Sequence record: PZ049694.1
Length of the DNA stretch: 64,000 nucleotides
Reading direction: 5' to 3' (one strand)
From: a phage
Part shown: positions 7,309 to 63,472 of the stretch, one piece after another
Numbering within the stretch: the first letter of the stretch is position 1
Layout of the letters: each line of letters starts with the position of its first letter
Program-made: the position numbers and the translations under genes
The notes under the pieces: model-generated
What the model was told of the DNA's origin: nothing
Databases searched by the model: none
What the model saw: only the letters and a program-made list of their open reading frames with translations

Positions 7309-7650
7309 TTAAAAGAATTTAAATTTTTTCTTGGTCCTTTCATTAAAAGCTTGTTGTACTTGCATTGTAACACATTTTTCAACATGCGGTGCAAGTTCTG
7401 CTTTTCTGTCCTGGTCAAGAACTGCAAAGTCCATTACGATTTTACCATCAACCCAGTCTAGTTTTGTAATATAGACTATATGATGAGAACCATCTTCAAG
7501 TGTAATCAGAATCTCTTGAATGACATTTTCCATTGCTGAACGGATAATTTTAAGAGATTCATTAAACACTCGTTCTTTGCGAATGTCTTCCCCTTCCGAA
7601 GAAGGGGATTCATCAACGATTTCTAGATTTAAATCATCGAGATTATTCAT
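7309..7650 (-). CDS. hypothetical protein at the position of T4 gene 40
   Basis: 113 aa after moving start to internal ATG clear of uvsX; assignment by synteny only. Confidence 0.4.
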   Translation of the reverse strand: MNNLDDLNLEIVDESPSSEGEDIRKERVFNESLKIIRSAMENVIQEILITLEDGSHHIVYITKLDWVDGKIVMDFAVLDQDRKAELAPHVEKCVTMQVQQAFNERTKKKFKFF

Positions 7651-8815
7651 CGAAATCTTCCATTTCGTCAAGGTCGTTTTCTATATCTGCTGCAGACGGA
7701 GCATCAGAAGTTTTAACCGGAACTTTAGTTGTTGCTTTGCAATTAATAAGGTCGTTAACAGCATCATCAACTTCTTTAATAGAAGAGATAGCACCTAGTT
7801 TATATTTAGTTTCAATTGCATCTCGGAAAGGTTTGTGTTTAAACAACGGTCCCCAGAATTCTACACAATCAGTAGCTTTAGCACGCCATGATTTTTCTTC
7901 ACGAATCATTTCACCTGTTTCTTCGTCAAGGAATTCTCGAGCATACCAACCAGCTTTAGGCTTAACCACAAAACCGATTTCAGTTGCCATTTCTAACAAG
8001 CCACTGAATGGGTCGATACCACCATCGAAATTAACCGTGATTGGGAAAGTAGATTTCTCTTTAACTGTACGAGATTTTTCTGCTTTCAACGTGAAGTCAT
8101 AACCGGTCAATTCTGTACCTTCTTTAACCTGACGTTTAGAGATAAAGAATACAGTGTTAGCAGAGTAAAGAATACCTGTACCACCACCCATAATCTCTTT
8201 AGGATACAATCCGCCAATTTCCATTGCTGTATGGTTAATTGCAACACACGGAATATCTTTAATAGTCAGATACGGTGTCACAATACGGAAAAGAGATTTA
8301 AGTGCCTTAGCACGAGACATATCACCTACGACTTTCTCGTTCAATGCATCTTCGGTTTCTTTCTTAGATGCAGTATTACCGATTGAATCGATAAAGATAA
8401 TAACTTTATCACCGCGTTCAATAGCGTCAAGCTGATTAGTCATATCAACTTTAAGTTGTTCGACAGATTGAATCGGAGTATGAACTACACGGTCTAAATC
8501 AACACCCATTGAACGAAAATAAGATTCTGAAGCACCAAATTCTGAATCATAGAACAAACAAATTGCATCTTTATATTTCTTCATATATGCTGCAACCATG
8601 GTCAGCCCAAACAACGTTTTAAAGTGTTTAGAAGGAGCAGCAAAAATAGTTAAGCCTGATTGCAACCCGGCATTCAGTGCACCACCTAATGCAATATTCA
8701 ACATCGGAATACGAGTAGGGACTTCATCACGATTATTAAACAGCTTAGACTTAGTCAAGTCTGCAGTCATTTTAGAAGTAGAAGCTTTAATCAGACGAGA
8801 TTTTAAATCAGACAT
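7643..8815 (-). CDS. uvsX: RecA-like recombinase UvsX
   Basis: 390 aa; N-terminus MSDLKSRLIKASTS and core motifs as remembered for T4 UvsX. Confidence 0.9.
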   Translation of the reverse strand: MSDLKSRLIKASTSKMTADLTKSKLFNNRDEVPTRIPMLNIALGGALNAGLQSGLTIFAAPSKHFKTLFGLTMVAAYMKKYKDAICLFYDSEFGASESYFRSMGVDLDRVVHTPIQSVEQLKVDMTNQLDAIERGDKVIIFIDSIGNTASKKETEDALNEKVVGDMSRAKALKSLFRIVTPYLTIKDIPCVAINHTAMEIGGLYPKEIMGGGTGILYSANTVFFISKRQVKEGTELTGYDFTLKAEKSRTVKEKSTFPITVNFDGGIDPFSGLLEMATEIGFVVKPKAGWYAREFLDEETGEMIREEKSWRAKATDCVEFWGPLFKHKPFRDAIETKYKLGAISSIKEVDDAVNDLINCKATTKVPVKTSDAPSAADIENDLDEMEDFDE

Positions 8816-8914
8816 TGTATTTTTCCATAGGCATCATTATATTTTACTCATGTTTAAAAGATAAGACGATTATATACTAAGGGTTATACAGCATTTAAAA
8901 CTTTAAACAGGCTC

Positions 8915-9463
8915 TTAACGAGCCCATTTGATAATTTCTGTAATCAAATAATTACGTTCGCTTGCATTAAATCCTATAACTTTGTTAGCACCGTCATGAT
9001 TAAGTAATTGATACGTTTGGATTTTGTTATGAATTGCAAACTCTTCAAAATATGAAATGACTGTATTAAAACCGAACGAAGACAAAGTAATAAGGTCGTC
9101 TTCAAAACTTTCAGTCATTTCGTTACGTGTTAAAATAATTGTGAACACATCATGGTTTTGGCAAAGACGAACATAATCCTGTTCATAAACGTCAAGAACC
9201 GAGTCCGCATCTTGTCGAATACGTCCATAAACCCAGTTACTAATATATCCACGGTCTAACAGATAAATCTTAGTAGGGTCTAAATAATTCAACATCGTTT
9301 CGAAACAGCCAACTTCATTTCGAGACTTAACATCGAAACGTCCATCAACTGTTCGTTTAGGGAAATCAATCTTTACATATCTTTCACTAATTTCCATTAT
9401 GTCATTAATGAAAGTTGTTTTACCAGCATTATCCGGGCCATCTACTAAAATAATTTTAGCCAT
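8915..9463 (-). CDS. P-loop kinase, thymidylate/dNMP-kinase-like
   Basis: 182 aa; Walker A GPDNAGKTT; LLDRGYISNWVYG resembles the TMP-kinase DRx..S..Y motif. Confidence 0.55.
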   Translation of the reverse strand: MAKIILVDGPDNAGKTTFINDIMEISERYVKIDFPKRTVDGRFDVKSRNEVGCFETMLNYLDPTKIYLLDRGYISNWVYGRIRQDADSVLDVYEQDYVRLCQNHDVFTIILTRNEMTESFEDDLITLSSFGFNTVISYFEEFAIHNKIQTYQLLNHDGANKVIGFNASERNYLITEIIKWAR

Positions 9464-9464
9464 T

Positions 9465-10364
9465 TTATTCCTCGATTACGACATCTTCATATTTAGGTAT
9501 ATTATACGGTGAAGAAATTAAAGCATTAAAGTAGATGAACTCACCAAGACCTGGATGGAATACTTCTTCAGGATTTTCGAAATATTGAATCTTCGGTCTT
9601 CCTTTAAGAATTTGATAGTACTCAGTTTTAGTTGGTTTAAAAATTCGAATCAGTGCTTCTTCAGGATACTTATTTCTGTCGAAGCTATTATTTGGATCGG
9701 TTATATAAAGCGGTTGACCTAATTGAATTGCGCATTCAACCACTTGTTCAAAACGATAACACGGGTCACTAATTCGAAATGGATGAAAAATACCATCTAG
9801 ATGAATAGGGGCCAAATCACCTACAAGACGCTGCATGATGGAAGGACGTATAACTTTCTGCGTTACGATAATCTTATTACCATCTGCACCAGCGTTAACC
9901 AGCACTTCCTTTTGACGTTTATTCAACACAGTAGTTTGAAGTGAACGATTAACCGACAACATATCGGTTTTTAAGAATTCGTCAATATAAAAACGTGGTT
10001 TATTAGGGTCTGCAGTGATATTGAAATTGAATTCCACATCAAAAGCGCCGTCATATCCAGTGATATCTGTGATTAGAAAATCACAATCATAATAAGCAAT
10101 TAATGAATCAACCACAAATTCATTTTCAGACCAGAAATATTTACGAGTGTTATACGCGTTATCTTTATACCATAATGGAACAAACTTAAATTCTGGGAAA
10201 AGACGTTCACATTCTTTAATATCAGATGCATTACGTGGATATGTAATCACATCACCCGGATTAGCACGGTGCAAATGAAGTTGGAAGTTGCCATCCTTAA
10301 GGATAGCATACTGTCCAGTTTCATAAGACCGCATACTCAAGATAGGTACGCGGAAAATAGCCAT
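9465..10364 (-). CDS. hypothetical protein (299 aa), candidate sugar transferase
   Basis: Occupies the slot where T4 has beta-gt; no recognisable motif; start overlaps the 42-like stop (TAATG). Confidence 0.5.
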   Translation of the reverse strand: MAIFRVPILSMRSYETGQYAILKDGNFQLHLHRANPGDVITYPRNASDIKECERLFPEFKFVPLWYKDNAYNTRKYFWSENEFVVDSLIAYYDCDFLITDITGYDGAFDVEFNFNITADPNKPRFYIDEFLKTDMLSVNRSLQTTVLNKRQKEVLVNAGADGNKIIVTQKVIRPSIMQRLVGDLAPIHLDGIFHPFRISDPCYRFEQVVECAIQLGQPLYITDPNNSFDRNKYPEEALIRIFKPTKTEYYQILKGRPKIQYFENPEEVFHPGLGEFIYFNALISSPYNIPKYEDVVIEE

Positions 10365-11080
10365 TAGTCAAGGAATCCTTTAACATAATCAAAATCACGT
10401 TCAAACACATGGGCACTTACCATGGTATGAGTATAATCACCAACTTCTACACCACATTCGTTAGCGATATAATGAAGTAATTTTCCTTGGAGATAAAAAT
10501 CTAACTGCATAACAACAGCACAGTTCTGAGAACGCATATGGCAGTGGGTATAAAGCTTACCATCACGAATATAATAAGTCACTGAGTCAGTACATGGATA
10601 TTCAAGCGTTTCGTCCGAATCAAGCAAAGCCTGATCTGAACTTTCAAGAATTTGAAACACAACTCTTCGTGAATTAGGTTTCTCTTTAAGTTCTTTTAGA
10701 AGAGCTGGTAATTGGGCCGCAATGCGAGGACCATAGAAAGTGTTGAAGTTCGCCGGCAAAACATCTGATTTTGGTTTAGAAATAAATTTAGCGACATTAG
10801 GATATGCCTTAAACGCTTCTTCTGCGTTGGTACCACCAGAAATCATAAACTTCCAGAAGTCTTCGGCATATTCATAAGAGATGCGGTTAATACGTGGGTC
10901 AGTCATTTTGAATGATGACGGAGTGTCAACAACTACTGTCATAGACCCAATTTCATTACAACGTCCAATACGAGAATCAGTTACGAATTCCGGGTTTTCT
11001 AAAATTTCACGATTGACTGCTTTAAATGCGGTTTGAAAATCTGCGGCTTTGATATATTTCATTGTGTTATGTTTTCCCAT
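10364..11080 (-). CDS. 42: dCMP hydroxymethylase-like enzyme (thymidylate synthase family)
   Basis: 238 aa; TS-family active-site region EYPCTDSVTYYIRDGKLYTHCHMRSQN; divergent from remembered T4 gp42. Confidence 0.7.
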   Translation of the reverse strand: MGKHNTMKYIKAADFQTAFKAVNREILENPEFVTDSRIGRCNEIGSMTVVVDTPSSFKMTDPRINRISYEYAEDFWKFMISGGTNAEEAFKAYPNVAKFISKPKSDVLPANFNTFYGPRIAAQLPALLKELKEKPNSRRVVFQILESSDQALLDSDETLEYPCTDSVTYYIRDGKLYTHCHMRSQNCAVVMQLDFYLQGKLLHYIANECGVEVGDYTHTMVSAHVFERDFDYVKGFLD

Positions 11081-11359
11081 GTTTACCTCAATACAATTTA
11101 TTATATACTCAATTCGTAAAGCTTATTTGAATTTCTTGACAATGTTGATATAACGTAAAGCTTCAGCATCGATACTTCCAAGAACACTATGAAGAAATGC
11201 ATCAGCGTAGTATTCCAATTGAACAGGTTTCTTTAATCACTTTAGCCGCTTTAGTTTCAAACAGGCCCATCAGGGCCTTTTTAAGAATTTGTTCATTAGT
11301 GTTCAGTTTCATAGTCAAAATCTCTTCATTAAGTTGGTGGTTAAAAGTTTTTCTAGAAA

Positions 11360-12520
11360 TCATTCCGGGTACCTCAAAGCGTCATCAGAGTTAGTTATAT
11401 CAATAATAGATATAGAGTTTTCTGCTAACCCGTTTTTAGATAATTGACGTTTATAATATCTTTCACAATATGTACACGTCGTCCCGCAGATTTCATTAGC
11501 ACAATCGAAATCTGGATGTCTGAACCACCTTTTTTCTAAAAAGCCATCTAACAAAGAGGTTTCAATATTTACTGTATGTGAAAACTCTGTCTCATTTTCA
11601 AGAGTGAAAATGGTCTCTAAAGGCTTCCACAGTTCTAACAAATTACCTTCAAACTTTTCAGAAGCGTATGCTTCAAGAACTTTCAAAATGTAGTCTGTGC
11701 TACCTGTACGTCCTGAAACTTTGAATTGAGTGATACCAATATCATTATAAAGTTTCAAATCTTGAGGACGAACAAAACGAGTTCTCAACCAGTTAAATGG
11801 ATCTGTATCACGAGCTTTAATACAATGTTGCATTGGATATCCATTTAAAGATTTGGCATCATCTACTGTAACATCGGTGCTATGGAAAATATAGCAAGAG
11901 TCACGATAACTACAATGTGTTGTATACCCTTTACCAGCATTAGAACAGAACTCATTTACAAGAACTTCAAATATTATATTGTTCTTATTACAAAACTCTG
12001 CTGCACGCTTCAGGAAAGAAACTGAACGGTTTTTATGAATTCCGCAGCAGACCTTTTTGATATTATATTGGTCATGCAAGTATTTGATTTGAGTTACAGC
12101 ATCGACATGTAGAATTGTTGAAACTTCAATCTCAATGTCTTTATTGACTTCACGAACAATTTCCATAACAACAGGGTTAGCGATAGTAATACGCCATACG
12201 CCTATTGACCAAAGATACTGAACATAATCCTGAATAGCTTTCTTCTTCCACTCAACTAGTTCTCTTTTTGAACCAGGATTTATCGTGTTGAGTGTATAGT
12301 TAAAGCAAATACCTAATTCGTTACAACGTTTAACGTAATCTTCTAACATCTTTTTGTCAACGTCAGGAAGCCTAAAATCAGGTCTGGCTGCTACAAAAGC
12401 CATTTCTCTTGTAGAGCCGTATACTTCATTTATCAAGCTATTAGGATAAGTTTTATTGAGCTCTACGATTTTATCAAGAAGAGCTAAATCAAAATTCGTT
12501 CCGATTTTAAAAGTATTCAT
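11360..12520 (-). CDS. Cys-rich enzyme of unknown function (386 aa)
   Basis: 13 or more Cys; C-terminal CANEICGTTCTYCERYY contains a C-x3-C-x2-C pattern; possible Fe-S or metal site. Confidence 0.5.
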   Translation of the reverse strand: MNTFKIGTNFDLALLDKIVELNKTYPNSLINEVYGSTREMAFVAARPDFRLPDVDKKMLEDYVKRCNELGICFNYTLNTINPGSKRELVEWKKKAIQDYVQYLWSIGVWRITIANPVVMEIVREVNKDIEIEVSTILHVDAVTQIKYLHDQYNIKKVCCGIHKNRSVSFLKRAAEFCNKNNIIFEVLVNEFCSNAGKGYTTHCSYRDSCYIFHSTDVTVDDAKSLNGYPMQHCIKARDTDPFNWLRTRFVRPQDLKLYNDIGITQFKVSGRTGSTDYILKVLEAYASEKFEGNLLELWKPLETIFTLENETEFSHTVNIETSLLDGFLEKRWFRHPDFDCANEICGTTCTYCERYYKRQLSKNGLAENSISIIDITNSDDALRYPE

Positions 12521-12577
12521 TTTTTTACATCTCGCGTTAATTGATGCGATGGTTTTTTGCAGGTCTTACTTAAATTA

Positions 12578-12979
12578 TTATAGATTCGGTTTATATGATT
12601 TAAATGTTTCGAATTCGCCTTTATTCATAAGAGCTTTGAATTCGTCAGGACGCATAGCTTTGTCGTCGATAATCCAATCATATACTGGTTTATGTGTTAG
12701 CAAATTATGGTACTTCAAGCCAATGTTTGCCAAGTTCTGAATCAGACTTGGGAGAATGTCAATTGCTATACGACCAGGACCTACTGACTTCATACCGCGA
12801 GCAGTGTAAAGCGTTATTGTATGCCCTGCATCATACAGGGCATTAATGGCAGACACCATTTCGACGTCTGGTTTGAAGTTCACGTAATCACGATTGTTAT
12901 TCCACTCTGTTATACAATCATCGACATCAAAACAAAGATTAAGCATGTTTTCTACACGGTGCATTAGATTCGTTCCCAT
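12578..12979 (-). CDS. HAD-superfamily phosphatase (small, 133 aa)
   Basis: Motif I FDVDDCIT (DxDxT); overlaps the upstream gene by 16 nt. Confidence 0.65.
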   Translation of the reverse strand: MGTNLMHRVENMLNLCFDVDDCITEWNNNRDYVNFKPDVEMVSAINALYDAGHTITLYTARGMKSVGPGRIAIDILPSLIQNLANIGLKYHNLLTHKPVYDWIIDDKAMRPDEFKALMNKGEFETFKSYKPNL

Positions 12980-14649
12980 TGATGAGTGATATCGCCACCG
13001 ATTGGACGATAAGAAACACCAGTTTCTTTATCAGTTAGTACCCATTTACCAGGATTTTTTGTAATCAGAGTAGCCGTTACAGGTTCTGCTACGTCATAAC
13101 TAATAGAGCCGTCTTGAAGTACACGGCCCATGTTACGTAATTGTTTAGTCAGAAGTTCCATACCTTTATAATATGCGGCTACCGCTTTAAGTGGATTATT
13201 CTTGAAATAACCACCTAATGCAATCCAGATAATTGCAACTGCCAAATGATGATACTCGTTAAACGAACTCATCTTTCCATATTTGTAAACTAATGGATTG
13301 ATGTTAATAGTCACATTACAAGTTGTTTCATCAATAGTAAACTGTCCCCAGGTCGGATTAGCGTTGAATTCATCATACCCTGAAACAGCATAAAGCACTT
13401 TAGCTTCGTCATACAATTTTGGTCCGTAAATCTTGGTTTCGCCAAAATATCCACGAGGGTCGATAAACTTGACTTCGCCATTATCAGTAATCATAGTATT
13501 ACTGAAGTTCGGGTCACCATGAATAACAGAGTACTGTCCCTGAGAACGGTTATGATAACGAATAAGGTGTTCTAAAGCTTGTTTCAGCATTGGCTTCAGA
13601 CGCCCAATCTTAGTGTAGTTCACATGTGTGATTTTACCAAATGAATCAATCAATGGTTGAATACTTTCACAACGATCAATAACTTTCGTATAGAACTCTT
13701 TAGTGAAATCACGACGAACAGTTTCAGGACTTACAAAATAAGTGTCTGTGCTGAATTTCAGTGCATCTAAAATTGCATCAACAATTTGTGGACGAGCAAG
13801 ACTTGATTTGGATTTAATATATTCAAATGCCGGCTTACCTTTAATGCGTTCCATTTCAAAGTTATTTTCATTAACAGAAACTAACTGAGGAACTGAATCT
13901 GATTTCACTTTAAGATACCATGAAATCTCATCTTTCTGAAGAGCTCGACCCTGTTCGGTTAATGCGAATTTAGTTACAGTTTCTTCACCGATTTCAACTG
14001 CATTAAAACTACGATTAAGTTCACGAACTTCATGAGCTTTTTCAAGTTTAGGCATATCACCTAAATCAATTAGATTCATAAGCTCTGATTTATTGAATGC
14101 ACCGCTGTAAAGGAATTCTACGAAATCACGTCCTTTGCAGTATTCATGAATTTCCTCATCAGTAGAACCCATATAGAATTCCCAGTCTTTGAACTGATAA
14201 ATTCCTACAACATTACCACCTGTTGAACCTACGTTAGTGATATTTTCACCGTCGAAATTATATCGACATTCGTCGCCCTTAACATAGATTGCGTTAACAT
14301 TCCAAGACCATGAACCAAAATCGGGAATAATATCACACCAGTTAACAATTACATTATGGCCGTTTAAATCTTTGTGTAATTTAGCAAGAGCATAAGCAGA
14401 ACCATACGCTTCATCAACTGTACGAATAGTCACATTGAACCCTTCTTGCTCACAATAAGCTCGAACAGTTTCAGCAAATTTTGAATGAACTACTACAATA
14501 ATTTCGTCTGCGCCAAGGTCAGAATAAATTGTATACAAATTGCTCAGAATAGTGTCTTGTTTATAGTTAACAAGCACCTTAGGAATATGATGCGTTATTG
14601 GATACAAACGAGTTGCCAGTCCAGCACCAAGAATAACAGCTTTTTTCAT
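12964..14649 (-). CDS. bifunctional sugar-1-phosphate nucleotidyltransferase / APH-type kinase
   Basis: N-terminal ILGAGLATRL (GxGxR of NDP-sugar pyrophosphorylases such as LicC, MurU, RmlA); C-terminal VIHGDPNFSN Brenner motif and FIDPRG (APH/choline-kinase fold). Confidence 0.75.
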   Translation of the reverse strand: MKKAVILGAGLATRLYPITHHIPKVLVNYKQDTILSNLYTIYSDLGADEIIVVVHSKFAETVRAYCEQEGFNVTIRTVDEAYGSAYALAKLHKDLNGHNVIVNWCDIIPDFGSWSWNVNAIYVKGDECRYNFDGENITNVGSTGGNVVGIYQFKDWEFYMGSTDEEIHEYCKGRDFVEFLYSGAFNKSELMNLIDLGDMPKLEKAHEVRELNRSFNAVEIGEETVTKFALTEQGRALQKDEISWYLKVKSDSVPQLVSVNENNFEMERIKGKPAFEYIKSKSSLARPQIVDAILDALKFSTDTYFVSPETVRRDFTKEFYTKVIDRCESIQPLIDSFGKITHVNYTKIGRLKPMLKQALEHLIRYHNRSQGQYSVIHGDPNFSNTMITDNGEVKFIDPRGYFGETKIYGPKLYDEAKVLYAVSGYDEFNANPTWGQFTIDETTCNVTININPLVYKYGKMSSFNEYHHLAVAIIWIALGGYFKNNPLKAVAAYYKGMELLTKQLRNMGRVLQDGSISYDVAEPVTATLITKNPGKWVLTDKETGVSYRPIGGDITHQWERI

Positions 14650-14690
14650 GTTGTGGTCCTCATTGGTAAGTAGGAGTATTGTACACTATT

Positions 14691-14834
14691 CTAGTTAAAG
14701 CATTCATACTTTGCTTGTAGTCCAATCATAATCCATCCAATTACAAGTGTCGGAATCATTACTGGAGCCGTTAAGCTCCAGTAGATAGTCATGACAAGCA
14801 TCAATAGTAAAAGTCCTATTGTTATTGCTTTCAT
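14691..14834 (-). CDS. small hydrophobic protein (47 aa)
   Basis: MKAITIGLLLLMLVMTIYWSLTAPVMIPTLVIGWIMIGLQAKYECFN; ATG overlaps the SIS gene stop (ATGA); below track cutoff. Confidence 0.35.
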   Translation of the reverse strand: MKAITIGLLLLMLVMTIYWSLTAPVMIPTLVIGWIMIGLQAKYECFN

Positions 14835-15466
14835 TGTTCGCCTCGTAACATGGCACCTAGTGCACCGCCAGGGTGGAACTTAAGGAAGTCATTAGAGGTA
14901 AATCCACGTTCAGACGAAAGGTTGATAGCAAACGTATCGATAAGCGCTAACAACAATGTAGTGGACATGGTCGGAGCCAGAGAATTCTCATCGACCTCTA
15001 CCGCGATGCCTGTACAGAAAGAGTAATCAAAAAGGGCTTCATTTTCTTGTGGAATGTCTGGGTTACAATGCAACAGAATTTGTTTGACGTTCGGACGAAT
15101 CATTTTAAGATGCTTAGCCACGCCTATCATTTCTTCAGTTTTACCAGAACGACTAATATGAATCAACACATCATTAGGCGCAATGAATCCTGCATCACCG
15201 TGAGAATAATGCCCAGTGTTCAAGTACATACTCGGGATACCGAGTGAAGCAAATGTCTCAGAAGCTTTAGTTGCAATATTAGCATTCTTACCAACACCTG
15301 TAATAATTACTCGGCTTTCATAATTACTAAGTCCCGGACGTCGAAGAGTTTCTAGAATAGCATTATAACGAGCAGGGTTTTGACTAATTACTTTGGCCAT
15401 AGCGGCCAAAGAAGAAGCTTGTTTTATGATTGCGTCAATAGCGATAGTAATAGGAGTAGTTTTCAT
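14831..15466 (-). CDS. SIS-domain sugar-phosphate isomerase, arabinose-5-phosphate isomerase-like (no CBS domains)
   Basis: 211 aa; SIS motif ITGVGKNANIA; C-terminal FLKFHPGGALG matches the KdsD/GutQ/KpsF signature. Confidence 0.7.
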   Translation of the reverse strand: MKTTPITIAIDAIIKQASSLAAMAKVISQNPARYNAILETLRRPGLSNYESRVIITGVGKNANIATKASETFASLGIPSMYLNTGHYSHGDAGFIAPNDVLIHISRSGKTEEMIGVAKHLKMIRPNVKQILLHCNPDIPQENEALFDYSFCTGIAVEVDENSLAPTMSTTLLLALIDTFAINLSSERGFTSNDFLKFHPGGALGAMLRGEQ

Positions 15467-62737: not shown

Positions 62738-63472
62738 TTACCTTAAGATTGTTTCAATTTTAGAATAAAGCTCTTCTAAAGAGCCGTCGTTTGTAATAAC
62801 TAAATCGCCTTCTTCAATAGGCAACCCAGCTTCTGTAATATGTTTATCGGTGGATTCCGTACCAGAGCGAACCACATGAATAACTGTAGCACCCATCGCT
62901 CTAGCGGTTTCCATTTCATGGACTTGACGTGTATCGGTTACGACATAGTAATCGAAATCACTTCCAATATAATCCATATAGTTTAATGCAAAAAGTTTAA
63001 CCCAATACATACGGTCAAATAAATTAACGACAACATCCGTACCGAGGGCTTGCATAAGACGGCGGATTGACCATGTGTCGTTGATATTATTTATAGCTTC
63101 ACGCAGGGCTTCATATGGTTTAATATCTAGATACGAATATCCACCTTCTAACGATGATAATACTTTAACATTATTAATTGGTAAATATTGACTTTGCAAA
63201 TAAATTAGCGCTTCTTCCAATAATTCAATAACATCCAACTTATTGAGATTTAATGGTGTTTCACGGTCGTATCCAATGCCTTCAAAGTATTCGTATTTCA
63301 ACTCTGTGAATACATCAGGGTTTTCAGCATGCCTACGTCCCCAGGCTATTGCTAGAGCGTCTTTAATCGGATATGCCAATTGGTATTTTACGGATTTAAA
63401 GTTTGAATTGATGTAATCGGCAGTGGTGTCTTTACCACTACGTTTGATGCCGCTTAAAAAGATTAGCTCCAT
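62738..63472 (-). CDS. 1: deoxynucleoside monophosphate kinase gp1
   Basis: 244 aa; P-loop LSGIKRSGKDTTAD; RRLMQALGTDVVVN and MYWVKLFAL as remembered for T4 gp1. Confidence 0.9.
   Translation of the reverse strand: MELIFLSGIKRSGKDTTADYINSNFKSVKYQLAYPIKDALAIAWGRRHAENPDVFTELKYEYFEGIGYDRETPLNLNKLDVIELLEEALIYLQSQYLPINNVKVLSSLEGGYSYLDIKPYEALREAINNINDTWSIRRLMQALGTDVVVNLFDRMYWVKLFALNYMDYIGSDFDYYVVTDTRQVHEMETARAMGATVIHVVRSGTESTDKHITEAGLPIEEGDLVITNDGSLEELYSKIETILR

Follow-up and report, generated by a model that had tools for sequence, protein, structure and literature searches.

A thymidylate-kinase-like protein of RB69-type phages is a predicted 5-hydroxy-dCMP kinase of a synthase-glycosyltransferase-kinase cassette

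We report on a 182-residue P-loop kinase encoded beside uvsX in the genome of a phage (sequence record PZ049694.1), of which a stretch of 64,000 nucleotides, referred to as the window, was analysed. Our best explanation is that this protein is a dedicated 5-hydroxy-dCMP kinase belonging to a portable synthase-transferase-kinase cassette, a predicted role to which we assign a probability of roughly 0.55. The protein would fold like a thymidylate kinase and be an active, ATP-dependent kinase of nucleoside monophosphates, acting within a proposed pathway: the synthase would hydroxylate dCMP to 5-hydroxy-dCMP, the kinase would move the gamma-phosphate of ATP onto this product to give 5-hydroxy-dCDP, a nucleoside-diphosphate kinase would convert it to 5-hydroxy-dCTP, the phage polymerase would incorporate the triphosphate, and glycosyltransferases would arabinosylate the 5-hydroxyl group on the DNA. 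The gene is already catalogued in the literature and the gain is a functional assignment, not a discovery; what is new here beyond the published account of these clusters (Lee et al., NAR 2026, PMC13326640) is the strict pairing with N169-type synthases, the three-gene cassette and the fusions of distant relatives.

Results

The kinase gene and its neighbourhood

The sequence-only reading had placed a second P-loop kinase gene with a DRGYISNWVYG motif next to uvsX, and a gene 1 dNMP kinase elsewhere in the window. Both genes are present: the motif lies in the 182-residue open reading frame, and the genome's 'first' kinase is a T4 gene-1-type enzyme (Table 1). The gene is real and intact: with homologs in 344 phage records (tblastn) it is not a chance reading frame. 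The exact protein is a member of a 148-member cluster and matches PHROG 761 (E 5.8e-45), and the names used for it in source records are only 'hypothetical protein' or 'thymidylate kinase'. The source genome is an RB69-like Mosigvirus; positions 7600-15000 of the window are 98.5% identical to Shigella phage phi25-307, and at least 80% of this stretch is covered in 151 phage records. The kinase shares 179 of 182 residues (98%) with RB69 gp45 (NP_861735), which occupies the same genome position, between uvsX and a glycosyltransferase.

On the minus strand the genes run in the order DNA polymerase, arabinose-5-phosphate isomerase, nucleotidyltransferase+kinase, HAD phosphatase, U32-family protein, a small open reading frame, a thymidylate synthase (TS) homolog, a glycosyltransferase (GT), the 182-residue kinase and uvsX; the annotation of the cluster at 11360..15466 follows the 98.5%-identical phi25-307, and the roles follow published work (PMC13326640). 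That study reports arabinosyl-5-hydroxycytosine in RB69-type phages, assigns the sugar steps to genes other than the gp45-type kinase, and predicts RB69 gp46:47, the ortholog of our GT, to be the first DNA arabinosyltransferase (PMC13326640 Table 1). It also shows by experiment the synthase activity of RB69 gp48. N169/D177 is the published diagnostic signature of 5hodCMP synthases. The TS homolog of the window, the gp48 ortholog, has the signature E143 C146 R166 N169 D177.

Kinase and TS homolog lie 901 nt apart on the same strand with the GT gene between them. A single base separates the GT stop codon (9465-9467) from the kinase ATG (9461-9463), and base 10364 is common to the TS and GT genes. 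No terminator-like site was found in 8700-11400, and promoter-like matches in the cassette region are no commoner than in shuffled sequence. Given the one-base gap, the GAGGAA site inside the GT gene, the shared base and the lack of a terminator-like site, the three genes look co-transcribed and translationally coupled.

Two further observations concern gene boundaries in this region. The GT and nucleotidyltransferase+kinase genes are single intact reading frames in the window, and the RB69 reference record splits both (RB69p046/047 and RB69p052/053); these splits are sequencing errors according to Lee et al. (NAR 2026, PMC13326640), with which the intact window frames agree. The small conserved reading frame between the U32 and synthase genes encodes 53 residues in the window and 76-78 in its relatives, with an N-terminal sequence like NHxLNEE, and has no Pfam match.

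Table 1. Coordinates of the kinase, its motifs and neighbours in the window, and of features in related loci.
Feature	Locus	Position	Strand	Basis or remark
182-aa kinase gene, RB69 gp45 ortholog	window	8915..9463	-	ATG start at 9463-9461
Walker A / P-loop GPDNAGKT, residues 9-16, including Asp11	window	9416..9439	-	G9, D11, G14, K15 invariant
DRGYISNWVYG, residues 70-80	window	9224..9256	-	read from sequence; Asp-Arg pair common to thymidylate kinases
R113 and family-specific FEDDLI, residues 113-125	window	9089..9127	-	short lid-like region after strand 4; putative role
GAGGAA ribosome-binding site for the kinase	window	9468..9473	-	inside 3' end of GT gene, 4 nt upstream of ATG
uvsX, 390 aa	window	7643-8815	-	next gene downstream of kinase, 99 bp gap
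T4 gene-1-type dNMP kinase	window	62738..63472	-	Pfam PF21448 DNMK, E 1.4e-96, 323 bits
GT, 299 aa, RB69 gp46:47 ortholog	window	9465..10364	-	open reading frame, RB69 synteny
TS homolog, 238 aa, RB69 gp48 ortholog, predicted 5-hydroxy-dCMP synthase	window	10364..11080	-	Pfam Thymidylat_synt, E 2.3e-15
Small open reading frame	window	11202-11363	-	
Small-frame relatives	L006; L010	5938-6168; 5898-6134		
U32-family protein	window	11360-12520	-	Pfam match
HAD phosphatase	window	12578-12979	-	Pfam match
Nucleotidyltransferase+kinase, 561 aa	window	12964-14649	-	Pfam match
Arabinose-5-phosphate isomerase	window	14831-15466	-	Pfam match
Chorismate mutase	L004	6162-6401		Pfam CM_2
Chorismate mutase	L006	6168-6404		Pfam CM_2
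Chorismate mutase	L007	6063-6407		Pfam CM_2
Chorismate mutase	L009	6170-6412		Pfam CM_2
Chorismate mutase	L010	6106-6411		Pfam CM_2
Chorismate mutase	L016	10335-10709		Pfam CM_2
Core-family kinase, Morganella phage MP1	L020	20500-21030		
TS homolog, Morganella phage MP1	L143	27021-27860		annotated thymidylate synthase
gp098, Rhizobium phage RL2RES	L028	6751-7386		211 aa
Kinase::HhH-GPD fusion	L021	10001-11074		contig JAXOUH010003483, GCA_034680565.1
Kinase relative fused to pyrophosphatase	L126	9623-10600		MazG/PRA-PH type
Kinase relative fused to UDG-superfamily domain	L131	9983-10912		
Kinase relative fused to UDG-superfamily domain	L113	9998-10921		

Pairing with N169-type synthases

Among phage records searched by tblastn, the TS homolog (at least 60% identity) occurs in 343, next to the 344 with the kinase, and the kinase/TS-homolog counts nearly agree by host genus: Escherichia 177/177, Acinetobacter 57/57, Shigella 15/15 and Klebsiella 25/26. 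We fetched 141 loci and scored all their open reading frames with a family model; the scores split cleanly into a core of at least 133 bits and a periphery of at most 59 bits. Proteins of two loci (L018 and L019) that had looked family-like at first reach only 28-29 bits and were treated as distant relatives. A same-strand TS homolog stands within 2.5 kb of 29 of the 33 distinct core kinases, and all 29 carry E143-C146-R166-N169-D177; three of the four core kinases without such a neighbour are on truncated contigs or at a contig edge.

The usual order in the cassette is synthase, glycosyltransferase, kinase. It recurs in six metagenomic viral contigs (L029, L033, L034, L036, L037 and L038), and a truncated contig (L035) has the GT-kinase pair; no arabinose-gene homologs were found in the flanks, of up to 10 kb, of L029 and L033-L038. 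The GT gene is immediately upstream of the kinase in every core cassette checked, and it is with this gene, not with the synthase gene, that the kinase shows its tightest coupling; in dhakavirus-like loci the kinase gene directly abuts the synthase gene, overlapping its start. With the exception of Morganella phage MP1, all complete core loci keep the kinase beside the synthase, which, together with numbers of phage records close to those of the synthase, suggests that the retained kinase is not dispensable.

[quoted passage not shown] Of the 163 kb genome, the 138 kb examined contain a single TS homolog, which lies near a dihydrofolate reductase and has the residues L143/D169/D177; an N177D change is known to convert thymidylate synthase into a dCMP methylase. 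MP1 also encodes a DenB-like endonuclease, and we speculate that it may carry 5-methylcytosine or another modified cytosine.

A protein in the same cassette position (synthase, transferase, kinase-like) is gp098 of Rhizobium phage RL2RES, of the Pootjesviridae. Its relation to the kinase family is marginal (hhalign probability 45%) and its motifs are unusual, with GKDT for GK[ST] and PR for DR; a separate 'dNMP kinase' gene stands just upstream of the synthase in this locus.

Catalytic residues and relation to thymidylate kinases

Across 40 family members, with identities as low as 22%, seven residues never vary (G9, D11, G14, K15, D70, R71 and D122), and K36, S75, N76, Y79, R113, D123 and N133 are nearly invariant. 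That the protein might be catalytically dead, which the sequence-only reading had named as a possible outcome, is very unlikely because the catalytic residues are invariant in these 40 relatives. In thymidylate kinases the P-loop carboxylate contacts the deoxyribose 3'-hydroxyl and the arginine of the Asp-Arg motif binds the acceptor phosphate; since both the P-loop Asp and the Asp-Arg motif are conserved here, we infer that the acceptor is probably a free deoxynucleotide. The residue after Asp-Arg is Gly or variable, and not aromatic as in the DR(Y/F/H) that follows strand 3 in thymidylate kinases. R113 ends strand 4, and the lid that follows is short and partly of low confidence (pLDDT 64 for residues 121-130). 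The nucleotide-binding region is some 20 residues shorter than in canonical thymidylate kinases, as read by eye from the sequences and the model and not from a computed alignment.

An AlphaFold model built from a 20-sequence alignment (pLDDT 87, pTM 0.83) matches the thymidylate-kinase fold in Foldseek searches, with TM-scores of only 0.5-0.63; against viral models it finds one family member at TM 0.91 and ordinary phage thymidylate kinases at about 0.6. A profile search of PDB sequences returns, beyond matches confined to the P-loop, only thymidylate kinases, and aligns the P-loop as well as an FPKR motif with FPQR of the vaccinia enzyme; the single 182-residue sequence gives only P-loop-level noise against PDB sequences. 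When hhalign compares the family profile with E. coli Tmk or RL2RES gp098, each as a single sequence, little beyond the P-loop aligns. The family is small: 1.84 billion proteins yield 309 representatives at E <= 1e-3.

The TMP-kinase likeness proposed from the sequence thus stands for the fold, the P-loop and the Asp-Arg pair and fails at the family thresholds: no Pfam or NCBIfam model matches the protein at its cutoff, TIGR00041 gives 15.6 bits against a cutoff of 83.25, PF02223 has no match at E <= 0.1, and neither PF21448 nor PF18748 matches. Could the protein nevertheless be an ordinary dTMP or broad dNMP kinase that raises the general dNTP supply, redundant with gene 1 and host Tmk? The fold and the nearest PDB relatives are those of thymidylate kinases, and PHROG 761 and RefSeq use that name. 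The scores, however, are far under the curated cutoffs, the residue aligned with the Gln that binds thymine in E. coli Tmk is a variable Gly/Tyr/Glu (motif alignment by eye), and so strict a co-occurrence with N169-type synthases is not expected of a general dTMP kinase. Gene 1 already covers dTMP in T4-like phages, and we consider a plain dTMP kinase unlikely.

Distant relatives and fusions

Among 72 distinct peripheral kinases, 47 have a TS neighbour, which is directly adjacent in 26; D169/D177 occurs in 42 of these 47 TS neighbours, as raw counts. The D169/D177 homologs are predicted to be dCMP-specific with ordinary folate-type chemistry. In small phages the kinase occurs as a set with a MazG-like pyrophosphatase, a TS homolog, a dCMP deaminase and a polymerase. 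Whatever the sugar, the partner that stays the same throughout the clade is thus a dCMP-modifying TS homolog, the pattern expected of a 5-substituted-dCMP kinase; the wider clade looks like a group of kinases for 5-substituted dCMP partnered with dCMP-specific TS homologs.

Eight relatives of 314-357 residues (P0059, P0060, P0065, P0067, P0069, P0074, P0076 and P0116) are fused to an HhH-GPD domain. Their kinase part aligns with an hhalign probability of 99.6% and the FEDDLI motif is also present in fused relatives; the C-terminal domain is marked by a GLGKYAxDS hairpin and by EPLDKEL, a motif conserved in most of them, and a protein annotated MBD4 is among the closest relatives of this domain. 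Enzymes of the MBD4 type remove deaminated pyrimidines opposite G. We rejected an identification of the fused domain as an amino-acid:DNA transferase, having found no similarity to M6 gp51. Distant relatives are also fused to a pyrophosphatase (L126) or to a UDG-superfamily domain (L131 and L113), and each of these three directly adjoins a dCMP-specific (D177) TS homolog.

One HhH-GPD fusion (L021) is part of a predicted 5-hydroxycytosine cluster, where it is flanked by an N169/D177 TS homolog on one side and an FMN reductase on the other, followed by SIS isomerase and nucleotidyltransferase-kinase homologs; the cluster also has a dCMP deaminase and a dUTPase/DCD.

The DNA-glycosylase-type fusions could point to a role at the level of DNA or, equally, to the joining of two modified-cytosine housekeeping activities. 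The former would make the kinase a partner of the first glycosyltransferase, either as a kinase or ATPase that handles 5-hydroxycytosine in DNA or as a factor that loads, regulates or gates the transferase, with the fusions marking base-flipping modified-cytosine kinases parallel to the 5-hmdU DNA kinases. The translational coupling to the GT gene in nearly every cassette would fit such a role, as would the fusions to MBD4-like HhH-GPD or UDG-superfamily domains and the likeness to the proven 5-hmdU DNA kinase, which is of similar size (about 187 aa) and resembles the family profile weakly (M6 gp54, hhalign probability of 81%, confined to the N-terminal 82 columns). We nonetheless hold it improbable: M6 gp54 scores 65 bits with PF18748, which does not match the 182-residue kinase; the Asp-Arg motif and P-loop Asp conserved here are both missing at the aligned positions of M6 gp54; the fused domain is unlike the amino-acid:DNA transferase partner of the 5-hmdU kinases; and distant relatives adjoin TS homologs and MazG-like enzymes without any glycosyltransferase. 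According to the published account, moreover, the transferases were shown to arabinosylate 5hoC DNA in a reconstitution without a kinase (PMC13326640).

Two further readings start from the sugar genes. The kinase might recycle the UMP or UDP released by the transferases and so sustain UDP-arabinose synthesis, an idea suggested by its position beside a transferase that would use a UDP-sugar and by the high UDP-sugar demand to be expected if every cytosine bears one or two arabinoses. Relatives without a glycosyltransferase neighbour still pair with dCMP-specific TS homologs, however, hosts have a UMP kinase and a nucleoside-diphosphate kinase, and a P-loop Asp is typical of enzymes acting on deoxyribonucleotides, all of which makes uridine recycling distinctly improbable. 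A sugar-phosphate or cofactor kinase, serving for instance arabinose activation or the FMN supply of a flavin-dependent synthase, would accord with the sugar-activating genes in the cluster, the flavin bound by the synthase (PMC13326640) and the FMN reductase adjoining one fused relative, but is highly improbable, a sugar-kinase role being rejected because some viral contigs carry the cassette but show no arabinose-pathway genes within 10 kb.

A possible second route to 5-hydroxycytosine

RlhA, the enzyme that forms 5-hydroxycytidine in rRNA by means of prephenate and an Fe-S cluster (PMC5727448), shares its Pfam family with the U32-family protein of the window, at whose C-terminal end four Cys residues form a cluster (DCANEICGTTCTYC). 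Between the U32 and 5hodCMP synthase genes, six related phage loci have a gene for a type II chorismate mutase (above the Pfam cutoff; Table 1), an enzyme whose product is prephenate. With tblastn the U32 gene matches 222 phage records, each at no less than 80% identity, and no Acinetobacter phage is among those listed, against 57 Acinetobacter phage records with the synthase. The RlhA family membership, the neighbouring chorismate mutase and the absence from the Acinetobacter listing together suggest that phages of facultative anaerobes have a second route to 5-hydroxycytosine, possibly O2-independent and prephenate-dependent. In the work of Lee et al. the U32 protein bears the label 'sugar or heterocycle reductase' (PMC13326640), and a full-text literature search found no link between U32, prephenate and phage.

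Discussion

A proposed dedicated 5-hydroxy-dCMP kinase and the presence of two kinases

Three kinds of acceptor had been offered from the sequence for this kinase: a modified nucleotide, a sugar and the 5-hydroxymethyl group on DNA. Our analysis favours the first and narrows it, since the arabinosyl-5-hydroxycytosine of RB69-type phages and the N169/D177 TS neighbour point to 5-hydroxy-dCMP as the probable substrate and not to a hydroxymethyl compound. The sugar option loses ground with the cassettes that stand apart from arabinose genes and with the published assignment of the sugar steps, and the analogy to 5-hmdU DNA kinases does not hold either; in addition to the sequence differences noted above, the known DNA product needs no phosphate-activated step.

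Some findings count against the 5-hydroxy-dCMP reading, namely the tightest coupling being with the GT gene, the DNA-glycosylase-type fusions and the MP1 kinase that occurs without a cassette. Others count against the need for a second kinase: RB69 gp159, the gene-1 kinase, converts 5hodCMP to 5hodCDP in vitro, and the synthase together with gp159 suffices for 5hodC to be incorporated into the DNA of E. coli (PMC13326640), so that the 182-residue kinase is not strictly required in the E. coli assay. If the 5-hydroxy-dCMP role holds, there would be at least partial redundancy between the two kinases. We propose that the 182-residue kinase probably came with the cassette into a T4-like genome in which the gene-1 dNMP kinase was already present; arrival of the cassette as a unit would explain the two kinases in one genome.

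Should our assignment be correct, the replacement unit for glycosylated 5-hydroxycytosine would be a portable set of three genes for synthase, kinase and glycosyltransferase, prediction of the modification from sequence would be helped, its rebuilding in other phages or cells could be simpler, and the two dNMP kinases of RB69-type T4-like phages would be accounted for. The kinase clade, combined with residue 177 of the neighbouring synthase homolog, would provide a simple genomic marker for phages with 5-substituted cytosines.

Comparison with known systems

The closest described proteins are RB69 gp45 and DLP3 gp78, and analogously RL38JI gp214, which are the 'nucleotide kinase' entries of the published 5-hydroxycytosine clusters (Lee et al., NAR 2026, PMC13326640); for RB69 gp45 this label is a fold-based prediction only. 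Our protein, at 98% identity and in the same position, reproduces the same fold matches, and there is no difference in the protein itself.

With the thymidylate kinases (E. coli Tmk, human and vaccinia TMPK) it has in common the Walker A motif, the P-loop acid, the Asp-Arg motif and the fold. It differs from them in falling below the family cutoffs, in its shorter nucleotide-binding region and short lid (both read by eye), in the family-specific FEDDLI motif and in its genomic partner, which is a predicted dCMP-specific hydroxylase and not an enzyme of the dTMP pathway.

The T4 gene 1 dNMP kinase, which acts on hydroxymethyl-dCMP, dTMP and dGMP, is alike in the role proposed here, that of a phage kinase phosphorylating a modified dCMP made by a TS homolog. 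By sequence the two belong to unrelated families, the 182-residue kinase having no match to PF21448, and both coexist in the window genome.

The 5-hmdU DNA kinase M6 gp54 is likewise a small phage P-loop kinase (about 185 aa) from a base-hypermodification cluster, and differs in having FEG at the position aligned with the Asp-Arg motif; on this ground and for want of a PF18748 match we rejected membership of the 182-residue kinase in that family. The substrate of the 5-hmdU kinases is DNA, and their genomic partners are a dUMP hydroxymethylase and an amino-acid:DNA transferase (PF18724), a domain that gave no match among the six cluster proteins scanned in the window. In contrast to that dUMP hydroxymethylase, the TS neighbour of the 182-residue kinase is of the dCMP-specific (D177) type.
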